38,876 nt of DNA, taken from Shigella phage CT02. Made by a program: the position numbers and the translations under genes. Below the pieces are notes generated by a model. The model was not told where the DNA came from. It did not search any database and saw only the letters and a program-made list of their open reading frames with translations. The stretch lies in sequence record OP917825; one strand, 5' to 3'. Shown piece by piece: positions 3,327-30,167 of this stretch; positions within the stretch are counted from its first letter, which is position 1, and each line of letters opens with the position of its first letter.

Positions 3327-3467
3327 GAGGGGACTTAAAGCTACTATATAGGTTAGTCATTCAGATTATGCAATGACCCTTTATGCACTTTAAGTCTACC
3401 TCTATGATTGGTGATATTATCATTGTATAATCACCCTACCTTAGAGCAACTGAAAGGAGGTGGCTCA

Positions 3468-4116: not shown

Positions 4117-4199
4117 CCTAAAGTAAACCTAAAGCCACTACCTAAAGACCAGACCTAAAGCCACCACCTAAAGACCAGACCTAAAGCCACCACCTAAAG
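4117..4199 (+). repeat. CCTAAAG heptamer array including a perfect 26-bp tandem duplication (4141..4166 and 4167..4192)
   Basis: Direct reading: CCTAAAGACCAGACCTAAAGCCACCA occurs twice in tandem; further CCTAAAG copies at 3700-3720, 3826-3845, 3905-3930, 4005-4060. Confidence 0.8.
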
Positions 4200-4287
4200 A
4201 GTGGAGCTATCTTAAAGACAACCAGACCGATAGACCCACTGTTAACCTGTAGTCTGTCCTGTAGTTTCCTATAACATCCAACGTTGT

Positions 4288-4310
4288 CTATTACCCTCAC
4301 TAAAGGGAAT
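4288..4310 (+). promoter_or_regulatory. T3-class phage RNAP promoter (phiOL position)
   Basis: TATTACCCTCACTAAAGGGAAT, a one-base-shorter variant of the consensus, upstream of the early region. Confidence 0.55.
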
Positions 4311-4363
4311 GAGGGATACTTAAAGAGGGAATAAAAGATTTAATAAAAGATTTAAATTAATGG

Positions 4364-4393
4364 TTGACTTTGAGTAACCCTTAAGGCTATTAT
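4364..4393 (+). promoter_or_regulatory. Sigma70 early promoter (A1-like)
   Basis: -35 TTGACT (4364-4369), 18-bp spacer, -10 TATTAT (4388-4393); position matches T7 A1. Confidence 0.55.
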
Positions 4394-4492
4394 TCATCTC
4401 GTCAACGGGACAACGGCCTTAAAGCCACTCCCTGAGATACCGGAGTCAACCGGATAAGTAGACAGCCTGATAAGTCATACGAAAAACAGGCA

Positions 4493-7367: not shown

Positions 7368-10022
7368 ATGAACATCATCGAAACTATCGAAAAGAATGAC
7401 TTCTCTGAAATCGAACTGGCTGCTATCCCGTTCAACACGCTGGCAGACCACTACGGCAGCGCACTGGCTCGTGAACAACTGGCTTTAGAGCACGAGTCTT
7501 ATGAGTTAGGTGAGCGCCGCTTCCTCAAGATGCTGGAGCGTCAAGCGAAAGCTGGTGAGATTGCAGACAACGCAGCCGCTAAGCCGTTACTCGCTACGCT
7601 TCTCCCTAAGTTAACCGCACGTATCGTAGAGTGGCTCGAAGAGTACGCCTCGAAGAAAGGCCGCAAGCCTAGCGCATACGCACCGCTCCAGTTACTCAAG
7701 CCGGAAGCCTCCGCGTTTATCACCCTGAAAGTTATCCTTGCGTCACTGACCAGCACGAACATGACAACCATTCAGGCCGCTGCTGGTATGCTGGGGAAGG
7801 CCATTGAGGATGAGGCACGTTTCGGGCGCATCCGTGACCTCGAAGCGAAGCACTTCAAGAAGCACGTTGAGGAGCAGATTAACAAGCGCCACGGGCAAGT
7901 CTACAAGAAAGCCTTTATGCAGGTGGTCGAGGCTGATATGATTGGTCGAGGTCTGCTTGGTGGCGAGGCGTGGTCTAGCTGGGATAAAGAAACCACGATG
8001 CACGTAGGGATTCGCCTGATTGAAATGCTGATTGAATCCACGGGTCTGGTGGAACTACAGCGACACAATGCAGGTAACGCAGGCTCTGACCATGAGGCAC
8101 TGCAACTGGCCCAAGAGTACGTCGATGTATTAGCGAAGCGTGCAGGCGCTCTGGCGGGTATCTCTCCGATGTTCCAGCCGTGTGTCGTACCGCCGAAACC
8201 TTGGGTAGCAATCACCGGGGGCGGCTATTGGGCTAACGGTCGCAGACCTTTGGCACTCGTTCGCACTCACTCTAAGAAGGGCTTGATGCGCTACGAAGAC
8301 GTTTACATGCCAGAAGTCTACAAGGCTGTGAACCTCGCGCAAAACACCGCATGGAAAATCAACAAGAAAGTTCTTGCGGTTGTCAATGAGATTGTGAACT
8401 GGAAGAACTGCCCGGTCGCAGACATTCCATCTCTGGAGCGCAAAGAGTTACCACCTAAGCCGGACGACATTGACACCAACGAGGCAGCACTCAAGGAGTG
8501 GAAGAAAGCCGCCGCTGGTATCTACCGCTTGGACAAGGCACGAGTGTCTCGCCGTATCAGCTTAGAGTTCATGCTGGAGCAGGCCAACAAGTTCGCAAGC
8601 AAGAAAGCAATCTGGTTCCCTTACAACATGGACTGGCGCGGTCGTGTGTACGCTGTGCCGATGTTCAACCCGCAAGGCAACGACATGACGAAAGGTCTGC
8701 TGACCCTCGCTAAAGGAAAACCAATCGGTGAGGAAGGTTTCTACTGGCTGAAAATCCACGGTGCGAACTGTGCGGGTGTCGATAAGGTTCCTTTCCCTGA
8801 GCGCATCGCGTTCATTGAGAAGCACGTAGACGACATTCTGGCTTGCGCTAAAGACCCTATCAATAACACTTGGTGGGCCGAGCAGGATTCACCCTTCTGT
8901 TTCCTCGCGTTCTGCTTCGAGTATGCAGGCGTTGCGCACCACGGTATGAGCTACAATTGCTCTCTGCCGCTGGCGTTCGACGGGTCTTGCTCCGGTATCC
9001 AGCACTTCTCCGCGATGCTCCGCGATGAGGTAGGCGGTCGCGCGGTTAACCTACTGCCAAGCGAAACCGTGCAGGACATTTACGGCATCGTTGCACAGAA
9101 AGTAAACGAGATTCTCAAACAGGATGCAATCAACGGCACACCTAACGAGATGATTACCGTGACCGATAAGGACACCGGGGAAATCTCTGAGAAGCTCAAG
9201 CTGGGAACCTCAACGCTGGCGCAACAGTGGCTGGCATACGGTGTCACCCGTAGCGTAACTAAACGTTCGGTCATGACGCTGGCTTACGGTTCTAAGGAGT
9301 TCGGCTTTCGTCAACAGGTACTGGACGACACCATTCAGCCTGCGATTGACAGCGGTAAGGGCTTGATGTTCACCCAACCTAACCAAGCGGCTGGCTATAT
9401 GGCTAAGCTGATTTGGGACGCGGTGAGCGTGACCGTAGTCGCAGCGGTTGAGGCGATGAACTGGCTCAAGTCTGCCGCTAAGCTGCTGGCTGCTGAGGTC
9501 AAGGACAAGAAAACCAAGGATATTCTGCGCCACCGTTGCGCGGTTCACTGGACTACGCCGGACGGCTTCCCGGTCTGGCAGGAATACCGCAAGCCACTCC
9601 AGAAGCGTCTCGATATGATTTTCTTAGGGCAATTCCGTCTGCAACCGACGATTAATACCCTCAAGGATTCAGGCATTGACGCACACAAGCAGGAGTCTGG
9701 CATCGCTCCTAACTTTGTTCACTCACAGGATGGTAGCCACCTCCGCATGACAGTCGTTTATGCTCACGAGAAGTATGGCATTGAGTCCTTTGCGCTCATT
9801 CATGACAGCTTTGGGACTATCCCGGCAGACGCTGGTAAGCTCTTTAAGGCTGTGCGTGAAACGATGGTTCTCACCTACGAGAACAACGATGTGCTGGCAG
9901 ACTTCTATGACCAGTTTGCAGACCAGCTACACGAGACCCAACTGGACAAGATGCCTCCGCTTCCGAAGAAAGGAAATCTGAACCTGCAAGACATTCTCAA
10001 GTCTGACTTTGCCTTTGCATAA
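7368..10022 (+). CDS. Single-subunit DNA-dependent RNA polymerase (gene 1), T3 type
   Basis: ORF 7356..10022; start ATG 7368 (MNIIETIEKNDF...) after RBS GAGG; 884 aa; near-identical to recalled T3 RNAP, and the genome's promoters carry the T3 consensus. Confidence 0.95.
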   Translation: MNIIETIEKNDFSEIELAAIPFNTLADHYGSALAREQLALEHESYELGERRFLKMLERQAKAGEIADNAAAKPLLATLLPKLTARIVEWLEEYASKKGRKPSAYAPLQLLKPEASAFITLKVILASLTSTNMTTIQAAAGMLGKAIEDEARFGRIRDLEAKHFKKHVEEQINKRHGQVYKKAFMQVVEADMIGRGLLGGEAWSSWDKETTMHVGIRLIEMLIESTGLVELQRHNAGNAGSDHEALQLAQEYVDVLAKRAGALAGISPMFQPCVVPPKPWVAITGGGYWANGRRPLALVRTHSKKGLMRYEDVYMPEVYKAVNLAQNTAWKINKKVLAVVNEIVNWKNCPVADIPSLERKELPPKPDDIDTNEAALKEWKKAAAGIYRLDKARVSRRISLEFMLEQANKFASKKAIWFPYNMDWRGRVYAVPMFNPQGNDMTKGLLTLAKGKPIGEEGFYWLKIHGANCAGVDKVPFPERIAFIEKHVDDILACAKDPINNTWWAEQDSPFCFLAFCFEYAGVAHHGMSYNCSLPLAFDGSCSGIQHFSAMLRDEVGGRAVNLLPSETVQDIYGIVAQKVNEILKQDAINGTPNEMITVTDKDTGEISEKLKLGTSTLAQQWLAYGVTRSVTKRSVMTLAYGSKEFGFRQQVLDDTIQPAIDSGKGLMFTQPNQAAGYMAKLIWDAVSVTVVAAVEAMNWLKSAAKLLAAEVKDKKTKDILRHRCAVHWTTPDGFPVWQEYRKPLQKRLDMIFLGQFRLQPTINTLKDSGIDAHKQESGIAPNFVHSQDGSHLRMTVVYAHEKYGIESFALIHDSFGTIPADAGKLFKAVRETMVLTYENNDVLADFYDQFADQLHETQLDKMPPLPKKGNLNLQDILKSDFAFA

Positions 10023-10033
10023 CAAGCACTTAG

Positions 10034-10056
10034 CATTAACCCTCACTAACGGGAGA
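10034..10056 (+). promoter_or_regulatory. T3-class phage RNAP promoter (phi1.05)
   Basis: CATTAACCCTCACTAACGGGAGA; transcript start is followed by a perfect hairpin GGGAGAC-TACTTAAG-GTCTCCC (10051-10072). Confidence 0.7.
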
Positions 10057-10108
10057 CTACTTAAGGTCTCCCACTTTAAGACACTTTAGGTACTAAGAGA
10101 TTAAATTT

Positions 10109-10381
10109 ATGATTAACATTAAGACTTTCTTTAAGAACATCTTTAAGTTAAACCGCTTGACTTCCGTTAAGTTCTACGCTTGGATGCCCGGTAGTGATGA
10201 CCTCCGCAAGACTGAATTTAAGTTAGGCTTAGGGCCGTGCGGTAAGGTGGTCACGAAGTTGGAATGTTACTCAACGGCCTCCGGGATGGTCATCTTCCAG
10301 ACTACTGAGGACAACGAAACGAAATCCTTCTACTACCCGAAAGGTTCAACGTGTGGTCGTATCGAACGGACATGTAGTTAA
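10109..10381 (+). CDS. Hypothetical protein (1.05 position), 90 aa
   Basis: ORF bracketed by two phage promoters; AT-rich relative to neighbours; weak RBS; stop overlaps the next promoter. Confidence 0.45.
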   Translation: MINIKTFFKNIFKLNRLTSVKFYAWMPGSDDLRKTEFKLGLGPCGKVVTKLECYSTASGMVIFQTTEDNETKSFYYPKGSTCGRIERTCS

Positions 10382-10398
10382 CCCTCACTAACGGGAGA
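10376..10398 (+). promoter_or_regulatory. T3-class phage RNAP promoter (phi1.1)
   Basis: AGTTAACCCTCACTAACGGGAGA. Confidence 0.7.
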
Positions 10399-10402
10399 GT
10401 TA

Positions 10403-10437
10403 AACTTAAGGTCATCACCAGCGGTGGCCTTTGTGAT
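10403..10437 (+). promoter_or_regulatory. RNase III-type processing hairpin (R1.1-like)
   Basis: AACTTAAGGTCATCACCAGCGGTGGCCTTTGTGAT; conserved flank family. Confidence 0.5.
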
Positions 10438-10473
10438 TAACTTTCAATACACATCAACACGAGGTAAGATACT

Positions 10474-10614
10474 ATGCGTACCAACTTTGAGAAATTTACC
10501 AAGCGCGATTCAGTGGTCAATGAGCATGGCGAACAGTGGCAAGAGCGCCGTGACCGCATGAAGAAACGCCACAAGCAACAGCGCGGTAACTCACAGAAAC
10601 GGGAGTGGAACTAA
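10474..10614 (+). CDS. gp1.1-like small basic protein (46 aa)
   Basis: ATG 10474 after RBS GAGGT; product MRTNFEKFTKR... resembles T7 gp1.1; not in the ORF track because it is under 60 aa; stop overlaps the 1.2 start (TAATG). Confidence 0.55.
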   Translation: MRTNFEKFTKRDSVVNEHGEQWQERRDRMKKRHKQQRGNSQKREWN

Positions 10615-10889
10615 TGATGGGACGTCTCTATAGCGGCAACCTGAACGATTACAAAGATGCGGTAGCGCGTCTACAGGAAGACCATGACGTGACCGTGAAG
10701 ATGGAGTCATTCAGCTATGAAAACCCAGCGAAGATGTGCAGGTCATCCGGTGAGGTTCTCCGTGTGTTCACACGCTCCGGGCATCTGGTGGCATCCAGAA
10801 CCTTCGAGCACAGCGACAGCGATGTACAAATCAACGCGCAGACTGCATGGCTCCGCAAGGTTCACAGCGATTTGAAACACTGGAAGTAA
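10614..10889 (+). CDS. gp1.2-like protein (host dGTPase inhibitor family)
   Basis: ORF 10605..10889; preferred start ATG 10614 (MMGRLYSGNL...) overlapping the 1.1 stop; C-terminus ...DLKHWK resembles T7 gp1.2. Confidence 0.65.
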   Translation: MMGRLYSGNLNDYKDAVARLQEDHDVTVKMESFSYENPAKMCRSSGEVLRVFTRSGHLVASRTFEHSDSDVQINAQTAWLRKVHSDLKHWK

Positions 10890-10915: not shown

Positions 10916-11332
10916 ATGAGAAACATCGAACGGTTCAACGCAAAGACTGAACCTTGCGGTGACTGTCTACGTTGGACTGGTCGAATCCAGCCTAACGGTT
11001 ACGGACAGTTTCGCCTCGAAGGTAAAACACAATACGCACATCGAGCAGCTTACAAGCTGTTTATCGGTGAACTGGACAATAAAGATACAGTCCTTCACTC
11101 GTGCGACAACAGGTGGTGTGTGAACCCTGAGCATTTGACCAAGGGAACGCAGGCCGATAACCTGAAAGACATGGCGATAAAGGGTAGACACCACGCCATT
11201 AAGATTCCGAACGATGCCATTGAGGGCATCCGCAAAGACCCTCGCTCTTCCACTGCGATAGCGGCTGAGTGGGGAGTCCACCCAACAACCATCCAGAAGA
11301 TTAAGCGAAATATCAACAGGAGATTCGTATGA
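10916..11332 (+). CDS. HNH endonuclease (homing-endonuclease-like), 138 aa
   Basis: Motif HSCDNRWCVNPEHLTKGTQADN (HNH with conserved His/Asn) plus upstream CGDC; start ATG 10916 after AGGAG; ORF-track start 10847 overlaps gene 1.2. Confidence 0.75.
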   Translation: MRNIERFNAKTEPCGDCLRWTGRIQPNGYGQFRLEGKTQYAHRAAYKLFIGELDNKDTVLHSCDNRWCVNPEHLTKGTQADNLKDMAIKGRHHAIKIPNDAIEGIRKDPRSSTAIAAEWGVHPTTIQKIKRNINRRFV

Positions 11333-22109: not shown

Positions 22110-22166
22110 AACTCAAGGCTCTCTACAATTAACCCTCACTAAAGGGAAGAGGGAGCCTTTATGATT
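22110..22166 (+). promoter_or_regulatory. RNase III-type hairpin enclosing a phage promoter
   Basis: AACTCAAGGCTCTC ... GAGGGAGCCTTTATGAT arms flank the promoter at 22127..22149. Confidence 0.5.
22127..22149 (+). promoter_or_regulatory. T3-class phage RNAP promoter (phi6.5)
   Basis: AATTAACCCTCACTAAAGGGAAG. Confidence 0.7.
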
Positions 22167-22200
22167 ATTACTTTAAGACTTAACCTTAAGAGGTGAAATT

Positions 22201-22446
22201 ATGTTACAACCAATTAATCATGTTTTAACTCATCCCGATGATATTCCTAGTATGCCTCGTGCAGCTAAAGAGTATCTACAGGTGCGCTTCAATCAGGCTT
22301 ATGTGATGGAGTCTGGGGAGTACCGTGCGCTACGCGCTGCTGGATACTCTGAGTCTTTCATTGCGGGTGTGTTGCATGGTCTGTACCTTGCCTCTCGAAC
22401 ACTTGATGAGATTGAGGTGCGTAAAGAGCAACTGAGACAGGAGTAA
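22201..22446 (+). CDS. gp6.5-like protein
   Basis: 81-aa ORF with RBS AAGAGGTG; synteny. Confidence 0.55.
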   Translation: MLQPINHVLTHPDDIPSMPRAAKEYLQVRFNQAYVMESGEYRALRAAGYSESFIAGVLHGLYLASRTLDEIEVRKEQLRQE

Positions 22447-25716: not shown

Positions 25717-25851
25717 GACCATAGATGACTACAATGGTTGAATCACCTGAGCACAGAACTTTGTGGTCGCTCCCGTAGGTGAAACATTGAGAACCAACTC
25801 GATTCAAGTAGTAACCAAACTTTTCTTTAAATTAACATAAGGAGATTCAAC

Positions 25852-26892
25852 ATGGCTAACAATCAAGGCGGACAGCAAATTGGTACTAATCAGGGTAAGG
25901 GTCAGTCCGCAGCGGACAAATTGGCGCTGTTCCTGAAAGTGTTCGGCGGTGAAGTCCTGACGGCTTTCGCTCGCACCTCCGTGACCATGCCTCGTCACAT
26001 GCTGCGCTCTATTGCTTCTGGTAAGTCCGCACAGTTCCCTGTGATTGGTCGCACCAAAGCTGCTTACCTGAAACCGGGTGAGAACCTCGATGACAAACGT
26101 AAGGATATCAAACACACCGAGAAGGTAATCCACATTGATGGCCTGCTGACTGCGGACGTTCTGATTTACGACATTGAGGACGCGATGAACCACTACGACG
26201 TTCGCGCTGAGTACACCGCACAGTTGGGTGAATCTCTGGCGATGGCGGCTGACGGTGCTGTACTGGCTGAACTGGCTGGTCTGGTTAACCTGCCTGACGC
26301 ATCCAATGAGAACATCGAGGGTCTCGGTAAGCCTACCGTACTGACTCTGGTTAAGCCGAAAGCTGGCGACCTGACTGACCCGGTTGAGCTGGGTAAAGCA
26401 ATTATTGCTCAGTTAACTATCGCGCGTGCGGCGCTGACCAAGAACTACGTTCCGGCTGCTGACCGTACTTTCTACACCACTCCTGATAACTACTCCGCGA
26501 TTCTGGCTGCTCTGATGCCGAACGCTGCAAACTATCAGGCACTGCTTGACCCTGAGCGTGGTACTATCCGTAACGTGATGGGCTTCGAAGTGGTTGAGGT
26601 TCCGCACCTGACCGCTGGTGGCGCTGGTGATACCCGTGAGGATGCCCCGGCTGACCAGAAGCACGCTTTCCCAGCGACTTCCAGCACTACCGTTAAGGTT
26701 GCTCTGGATAACGTTGTGGGCCTGTTCCAGCACCGCTCTGCGGTTGGTACGGTCAAGCTGAAAGACTTGGCTCTGGAGCGCGCTCGTCGTGCGAACTATC
26801 AGGCTGACCAGATTATCGCTAAGTACGCGATGGGTCACGGCGGTCTGCGTCCAGAAGCTGCTGGTGCAATCGTGATGCCTGCTGCAAAGTAA
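25852..26892 (+). CDS. Major capsid protein 10A
   Basis: 346-aa ORF; RBS AAGGAGA; followed by the Tphi-like terminator. Confidence 0.95.
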   Translation: MANNQGGQQIGTNQGKGQSAADKLALFLKVFGGEVLTAFARTSVTMPRHMLRSIASGKSAQFPVIGRTKAAYLKPGENLDDKRKDIKHTEKVIHIDGLLTADVLIYDIEDAMNHYDVRAEYTAQLGESLAMAADGAVLAELAGLVNLPDASNENIEGLGKPTVLTLVKPKAGDLTDPVELGKAIIAQLTIARAALTKNYVPAADRTFYTTPDNYSAILAALMPNAANYQALLDPERGTIRNVMGFEVVEVPHLTAGGAGDTREDAPADQKHAFPATSSTTVKVALDNVVGLFQHRSAVGTVKLKDLALERARRANYQADQIIAKYAMGHGGLRPEAAGAIVMPAAK

Positions 26893-30110: not shown

Positions 30111-30133
30111 GAATTAACCCTCACTAAAGGGAG
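30111..30133 (+). promoter_or_regulatory. T3-class phage RNAP promoter (phi13), exact consensus
   Basis: AATTAACCCTCACTAAAGGGAGA. Confidence 0.8.
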
Positions 30134-30167
30134 ACACTAATAGATACGAGGGGGGGGTTAAAGCAGT

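Follow-up and report, generated by a model that had tools for sequence, protein, structure and literature searches.

Genes and features of the locus

The window analysed here, that is, the whole stretch of DNA from Shigella phage CT02, is a complete and circularly permuted T3-like phage genome of 38.9 kb with an overall GC content of 50.7%. Directly 3' of gene 1, which encodes the single-subunit RNA polymerase and has its stop codon at 10022, lies a region with two phage promoters, an AT-rich stretch, a small gene called 1.05 and two RNA hairpins. It is followed by gene 1.1 (10474-10614, + strand, 46 aa; Pfam PF08200 Phage_1_1), the first gene of the phi1.1 unit, and by gene 1.2 (10614-10889, + strand; PF10922, phrog_2949), which encodes the dGTPase inhibitor, both of them annotated in T3. 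Judging from the sequence, this is very probably the phi1.05 / primary origin / gene 1.05 / phi1.1 / R1.1 region of a Teetrevirus. Further downstream, between phi1.3/R1.3 and the ligase gene (11329), we found an HNH homing-endonuclease gene (10916-11332, + strand; PF13392; phrog_59, E = 6e-32). No gene occupies this position in T3 or phiYeO3-12, and just 18 of 89 related records cover at least 80% of the stretch 10916-11332.

A megablast search with positions 9900-10700 matched 102 phage records. The identity is 95-99% for 91 of them, and nearly all are from Teetrevirus; T3, T7M and phiYeO3-12 are among the matches. Over the 801 bp the best phage records are 98.4% identical and phiYeO3-12 is 97.9% identical, and an alignment with T3, phiYeO3-12 and Klebsiella phage GP-5 has a mean column identity of 99% over 10015-10480. 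A scan of IMG/VR returned two near-identical loci only. When the locus was compared with the origin regions of T3 and T7, as the earlier note had proposed, it was found to be 98-99% identical to the annotated regions of T3 and phiYeO3-12, and both its AT-rich stretch and its R1.1 site could be aligned with those of T7.

The homologous bases are already annotated in X05031, NC_003298 and AJ251805, and also in T7M, while the record of phiSG-JL2 has a 'putative replication origin' at the same place. The title of X05031 reads 'gene region 1-2.5 with primary origin of replication' (Schmitt et al. 1987, J Mol Biol 193:479). Because the reference phage records annotate all the elements listed above, the reading of the locus is correct but not new: every element has been annotated in T3 since 1987, and the locus is an ordinary, known feature, of which the CT02 case is a rediscovery. 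Searching the literature on the T3 origin, gene 1.05 or its product gp1.05, we found only genome-announcement tables. The locus illustrates that a correct functional reading can be recovered from sequence alone; otherwise it matters little.

The two promoters and their direct repeat

Both promoters are of the T3 class and are exact pattern matches on the + strand. The first, phi1.05 (10034-10056, start site G10051), begins 12 bp after the stop codon of gene 1, points rightward between gene 1 and gene 1.1, and is annotated in NC_003298, AJ251805 and X05031; the second, phi1.1 (10376-10398, start site G10393), is annotated in T3 and phiYeO3-12. The start sites, assigned by the T3 convention, lie 342 bp apart, exactly as the earlier note had given for its pair of T3-class promoters. 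The sequence TAACCCTCACTAACGGGAGA occurs exactly at 10037-10056 and 10379-10398 and, when up to three mismatches are allowed, at 13 sites in the window, all of them on the + strand, against none in 100 shuffles. Both sites fit the 23-bp T3-class consensus AATTAACCCTCACTAAAGGGAGA (-17 to +6), with a C at -1 and minor changes at -17/-16, and they are identical to the phi1.05 and phi1.1 promoters of T3.

A repeat search showed that the promoters carry an exact 21-nt direct repeat, TTAACCCTCACTAACGGGAGA (10036-10056 and 10378-10398, + strand), with a spacing of 342 bp. The likeness extends into the transcripts: ACTTAAGGTC lies a few bases 3' of both start sites (10059-10068 and 10404-10413), at nearly equal distance, and its counterparts in T7 are CTCAAGGTC at phi1.1A and CTTAAGGTT at phi1.1B. 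Since both transcripts share ACTTAAGGTC near their start, the sequence suggests that the promoter pair derives from an old tandem duplication of the promoter.

A scan of 9900-10700 for sigma-70 promoters gave one promoter-like site, not above chance, and a terminator scan of the same region gave three terminator-like stems (shuffle mean 0.7), one of which is the upper stem of R1.1. On the basis of these two scans we rejected a host-promoter or terminator reading of the hairpins described below. Two other promoters of the window deserve mention for their surroundings. The transcript of the promoter at 30115 contains eight consecutive G (GAGGGGGGGGT) ~20 nt downstream of its start (window 30129-30158), and just upstream of the phiOL-like promoter at ~4290 lies a tandem 25-nt repeat, CAGACCTAAAGCCACCACCTAAAGA, in two copies (4150-4200). 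The coordinates of the window are shifted circularly by ~4.4 kb against those of T3, so this tandem repeat probably lies close to where the physical genome ends meet.

The AT-rich stretch and the annotated primary origin

The primary origin of replication annotated in T3 (rep_origin, NC_003298 5682-5758; X05031 145-221) maps by alignment to 77 bp of the CT02 genome, at 10074-10150 on the + strand. The CT02 bases are ~99% identical to the T3 rep_origin and alignable to the AT-rich element of T7; in phiYeO3-12 the rep_origin is drawn wider and corresponds to 10050-10191 of the window. The GC content is 20-25% in the 40-nt windows starting at 10073-10113 and rises to 42-57% in those starting at 10153-10363, which make up most of the rest of the ORF. 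The AT-rich part is thus limited to ~10052-10185, covering the 5' leader and some 14-25 codons at the start of gene 1.05, and the annotated origin overlaps the first 14 of these codons. The earlier note had described the whole segment between the promoters as AT-rich and had proposed it as a primary origin with an embedded gene. The proposal of an origin agrees with the annotation of T3 and phiYeO3-12, but its extent must be reduced to the 77 bp of 10074-10150; likewise the AT-richness holds for ~10052-10185, but not for the rest of the ORF, which is at ~50% GC. From this homology and annotation, an origin function in CT02 is supported.

How much of the base composition has to do with replication is less simple. 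All five stretches of the genome in which the GC content over 80 nt is at most 0.32 (3345-3433, 4276-4414, 10052-10185, 22138-22254 and 25780-25866) sit just downstream of phage promoters, and by position they look like phiOR, phiOL, phi1.05, phi6.5 and possibly phi10. This placement fits the origin reading, and in T7 several of these promoters act as secondary origins. In addition, all eight occurrences of ACTTTAAG in the window are on the + strand, as expected of a leader motif. Because many CT02 genes are preceded by an AT-rich leader with a ACTTTAAG-type motif, part of the AT-richness may serve translation. Both observations would also suit a region that is a transcription unit only, in which the word 'origin' was carried over by analogy with T7 and replication starts elsewhere. 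We regard this as unlikely. The AT-rich stretch is not just one low-GC leader out of five but the extreme GC minimum of the genome, the lowest-GC 80-nt window starting at 10073 with 22.5%; its homologous element in T7 sits in the primary-origin region of that phage; and it runs at least 42 nt into coding sequence, where a leader function is not needed. Moreover, the primary origin is named in the title of the T3 record as one of the findings of the study behind it, and a role in expression and a role as origin are compatible with each other.

The primase binding site annotated within the origin is a less favorable piece of evidence. It is the pentamer 5'-GTGTC-3' on the - strand (GACAC on the + strand) at 10080-10084, annotated in X05031 at 151-155 and recovered by our pattern scan. 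The T7 counterpart on this strand is reported not to be used for priming (PMC12839067), which counts against the origin reading.

Sequence conservation adds a weak trend. Among 12 relatives, 2 of the 77 sites of the origin vary. If the segment is extended back to the start site, 2 of 100 sites vary, whereas the remainder of the ORF has 18 variable sites out of 225 (Fisher p = 0.044), a difference that fits the origin reading. The narrower test of the origin versus the rest of the ORF in the same 12 relatives gave p = 0.12, and the comparison of third codon positions, 0 of 14 in the origin-overlapping part versus 11 of 75 in the rest, gave p = 0.20. These two narrower tests are not significant, and the extra constraint on the AT-rich part and on the codons which overlap the origin is only a weakly significant trend.

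Gene 1.05 and its protein family

Between the promoters the earlier note had seen a 90-aa ORF, and this ORF is gene 1.05 (10109-10381, + strand). It starts with ATG and has a potential ribosome binding site, TAAGAG (10094-10099, + strand; X05031 165-170), and its stop codon falls inside the phi1.1 promoter. The protein belongs to the Pfam family PF25755 (Phage_T3_1_05), which it matches with 92.3 bits for a curated gathering threshold of 27, residues 16-88 corresponding to positions 1-72 of the 73 in the profile; it also matches phrog_6379 (E = 4.6e-36). A tblastn search with gp1.05 returned 572 phage records, of which 507 have less than 60% identity; the relatives are spread over Przondovirus, Berlinvirus, Kayfunavirus and Foetvirus and phages of Pectobacterium, Aeromonas, Pseudomonas and Ralstonia. 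The family consists of small proteins present in hundreds of Autographiviridae genomes, and in the loci inspected its gene lies directly after gene 1. The alignment has 15 invariant columns across five genera, and the variable columns among 12 close relatives, 11 synonymous and 9 non-synonymous, indicate purifying selection. The family match, the 572 records, the columns conserved across genera and this selection together show that gene 1.05 is a real gene which encodes a member of a conserved protein family. The CT02 protein is 95.6% identical to gp1.05 of T3. At codon 89 (10373-10375) CT02 has TGT (Cys) and all 11 relatives compared have TAC (Tyr); this two-base change lies 18-19 bp upstream of the phi1.1 start site.

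The family exists in two architectures. In T3-type gp1.05 just ~15 residues, encoded by the AT-rich origin, precede the conserved domain. In Przondovirus, Berlinvirus, Kayfunavirus and phiSG-JL2 this domain forms the C-terminal part of a protein of 159-187 aa, which also has a region that is charged and probably helical and, except in Kayfunavirus Dev2, a hydrophobic segment at its N-terminus. From this comparison of sequences, T3-type gene 1.05 looks like a truncated version with a new N-terminus encoded by the origin.

A search for homologous proteins with gp1.05 returned one cluster only and, as a consequence, no deep alignment could be used for structure prediction. The single-sequence AlphaFold2 model, with a mediocre mean pLDDT of 66.9, predicts an all-beta domain of six beta strands after a disordered N-terminus. 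A Foldseek comparison of this weak model with BFVD retrieved only uncharacterised members of the same family (TM ~0.4) and pointed to no function.

The 5'-terminal hairpin and the R1.1 site

The phi1.05 transcript begins with a hairpin (10051-10072, + strand), which is the inverted repeat A/A' of X05031. Its stem pairs GGGAGAC (10051-10057) with GTCTCCC (10066-10072) and is extended by a U-G closing pair; the predicted folding energy is -14.6 kcal/mol (z = -4.2) and none of 200 shuffles folded as well, in agreement with the perfect 7-bp hairpin that the earlier note had placed at the start of the first transcript. The hairpin is invariant in 12 relatives, save a 1-nt loop insertion in one of them. 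An origin-specific signal was considered and rejected, as strong +1 hairpins are present at 3 of the 13 promoters of the window and T7 phi1.1B has none.

The comparison across genera is more informative. The promoter which follows gene 1 gives a transcript starting with a hairpin in four genera: the stem is GGGAGAC/GUCUCCC in Teetrevirus, GGGAGCC/GGCUUCC with a UUCG loop in a Berlinvirus, GGAACC/GGUUCC in a Przondovirus and a longer stem in a Foetvirus, so that the stems differ but covary (AGAC/GUCU, AGCC/GGCU, AACC/GGUU). The equivalents outside CT02 lie at ~520-540 of locus L012, ~490-520 of L006 and ~790-835 of L010. Together with the promoter, a ACTTAAAG-rich leader and a gp1.05-family gene, the hairpin forms a layout kept in Berlinvirus, Przondovirus and Foetvirus, and such a conserved layout fits an expression signal for gene 1.05. 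As the structure is kept across genera and is absent from T7 phi1.1B, a promoter without gene 1.05, the hairpin is most likely a 5' stabiliser of the gene 1.05 mRNA. The same two facts, the layout shared by the genera and the joint absence of gene and hairpin at phi1.1B, can be counted in favor of a locus devoted to transcription with its replication start elsewhere; as mentioned above, expression of gene 1.05 and initiation of replication are compatible, and we keep the origin reading.

The second hairpin follows phi1.1 and was described in the earlier note as of the RNase III type; it coincides with R1.1, the RNase III processing site annotated in X05031, T3 and phiYeO3-12 (10395-10445, + strand), and it aligns with R1.1 of T7. 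It folds into a lower stem, an internal loop and an upper stem (-19.3 kcal/mol, z = -4.2) and would presumably be cleavable by the host RNase III. Among close relatives R1.1 has two allelic forms, GTTAAACTTAAGGTCATCACCAGCGG and GTTAGCCTCAAGGTCGTCCAAGCGGG (window 10398-10425 compared with loci L017-L022), with changes confined to the left arm and the loop and a constant right arm. An Rfam scan of 9900-10700 with E up to 1 gave no match, and no curated family covers the hairpins.

Natural phages without the annotated origin and gene 1.05

Seven natural T3-like phages (eight records, including NC_047843, PP597382, PV804821 and OX335419) are without exactly the 342-bp unit that carries the AT-rich origin and gene 1.05 (10057-10398). 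They are the Leclercia phages 10164-302 and 10164RH, the Erwinia phage ZCEA1 and the Klebsiella phages mtp1, mtp14, KLB7 and KLB12. Each has a single hybrid promoter with the upstream flank of phi1.05 and the downstream flank of phi1.1, and the carriers of the deletion differ in their flanking alleles of gene 1 and gene 1.2, which fits either repeated loss or spread by recombination. Since natural relatives without exactly this unit exist, the module of origin and gene 1.05 is dispensable and not essential, and because it is dispensable, its standing as 'the' origin is uncertain. Dispensability agrees with the title of the 1987 paper, which speaks of a 'conditionally essential region', and with the literature on secondary origins in T7: according to PMC8373140, such origins, for example phiOR and phi6.5, act when the primary origin is deleted.

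The same phages bear on two competing explanations. That the unit can be missing in nature is one more point for a locus concerned with transcription only, with the reservations already given. They could also be taken as a sign that the 342 bp form an accessory cassette which phages acquire and shed through homologous recombination between phi1.05 and phi1.1 and whose value lies in gp1.05 (e.g., a host-specific function) and not in replication. The exact 21-nt direct repeat at both ends, the single hybrid promoter in the eight records and the different flanking alleles all speak for such an exchange; furthermore, within Teetrevirus the body of the gene has been swapped for a version of 164-169 aa while its promoter-proximal ends were conserved. 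We nevertheless hold this explanation to be very improbable: the unit is retained, as such or as a variant, in ~86 of 97 related records, the existence of a T7 homologue means that the AT-rich element predates the T3/T7 split instead of being a recent insertion, and a structure prone to loss is compatible with an origin function.

A bolder proposal, which we consider possible rather than probable, retains the origin but makes it optional. The 'primary origin' would be facultative in nature, at least seven phages from three host genera having precisely excised the 342 bp in different flanks and replicating from other sites with a promoter and an AT-rich stretch (4276-4414, 22138-22254 and others); at the same time the +1 hairpin, with its covariation in four genera, would belong to the gene 1.05 mRNA and not to the origin function.

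A proposed mechanism

The model of T7 initiation reportedly goes back to Romano 1981, Fuller and Richardson 1985, and Rabkin and Richardson 1988. By homology with this model, as cited in PMC8373140, we propose the following for CT02. The phage RNA polymerase would start at G10051 and transcribe into the easily melted AT-rich stretch (10074-10150), where the short phi1.05 transcript could serve the phage DNA polymerase as a primer for rightward DNA synthesis. The helicase-primase would then load on the displaced + strand and prime leftward synthesis, for which a pattern scan gives TGGTC on the + strand at 10248, 10287 and 10354 as candidate sites. According to PMC8373140, the T7 origin requires a phage promoter and works with purified phage proteins.

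The phi1.05 transcript would double as mRNA for gene 1.05, a gene that shares its first 14 codons with the origin, and the +1 hairpin would most likely stabilise this mRNA. Transcription from phi1.1 would start the 1.1-1.2 unit, and R1.1 would let the host RNase III cut both the read-through and the phi1.1 transcripts.

Comparison with known systems

The closest system is T3 itself (X05031; NC_003298 5642-6053), where phi1.05, the inverted repeat A/A', the AT-rich origin, the primase pentamer, gene 1.05, phi1.1, R1.1 and gene 1.1 follow each other in the same order. The two regions are ~99% identical in alignment and differ by a handful of substitutions, one of which is in the loop of R1.1 (AGC in CT02, AAC in T3). 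The layout phi1.05 / rep_origin / 1.05 / phi1.1 / R1.1 is also that of phiYeO3-12 (AJ251805). At a larger distance, phiSG-JL2, Berlinvirus, Przondovirus, Kayfunavirus and Foetvirus share a promoter directly after gene 1, an AT-rich leader and a protein of the PF25755 type, which is 92 aa long in Foetvirus P1723 and 159-187 aa in the other four groups.

The primary origin of T7 is said to consist of phi1.1A, phi1.1B and an AT-rich region (Saito et al. 1980 and Fuller and Richardson 1985 are the names attached to it). As in CT02, the interval from gene 1 to gene 1.1 of T7 contains a pair of rightward phage promoters; R1.1 comes after one of them, and a stretch of ~22% GC with a primase-type pentamer after the other. 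The correspondence is precise: phi1.05 and the AT-rich stretch of CT02 align with phi1.1B and the AT-rich stretch of T7, including a shared ACTTTAAGAC motif and, at an equal position, the pentamer (GACAC in CT02 and GACCC in T7, i.e., GTGTC and GGGTC on the - strand), while phi1.1 and R1.1 of CT02 align with phi1.1A and R1.1 of T7. The order is however swapped, being phi1.1A, R1.1, phi1.1B, AT-rich stretch and gene 1.1 in T7, and phi1.05, AT-rich stretch, gene 1.05, phi1.1, R1.1 and gene 1.1 in CT02. T7 moreover lacks gene 1.05, its promoters are 75 bp apart instead of 342, and they are of the T7 class, whereas those of CT02 are of the T3 class.

This comparison also corrects the statement of the earlier note that the T7 origin lies between phi1.1A and phi1.1B. 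The statement is slightly off because the GC minimum of T7 (22.5%), that is, its AT-rich element, comes downstream of phi1.1B, and what lies between the two promoters is R1.1, at 40-47% GC. The unit that matters is a single promoter with an AT-rich stretch downstream of it, and not a pair of promoters bracketing an origin.
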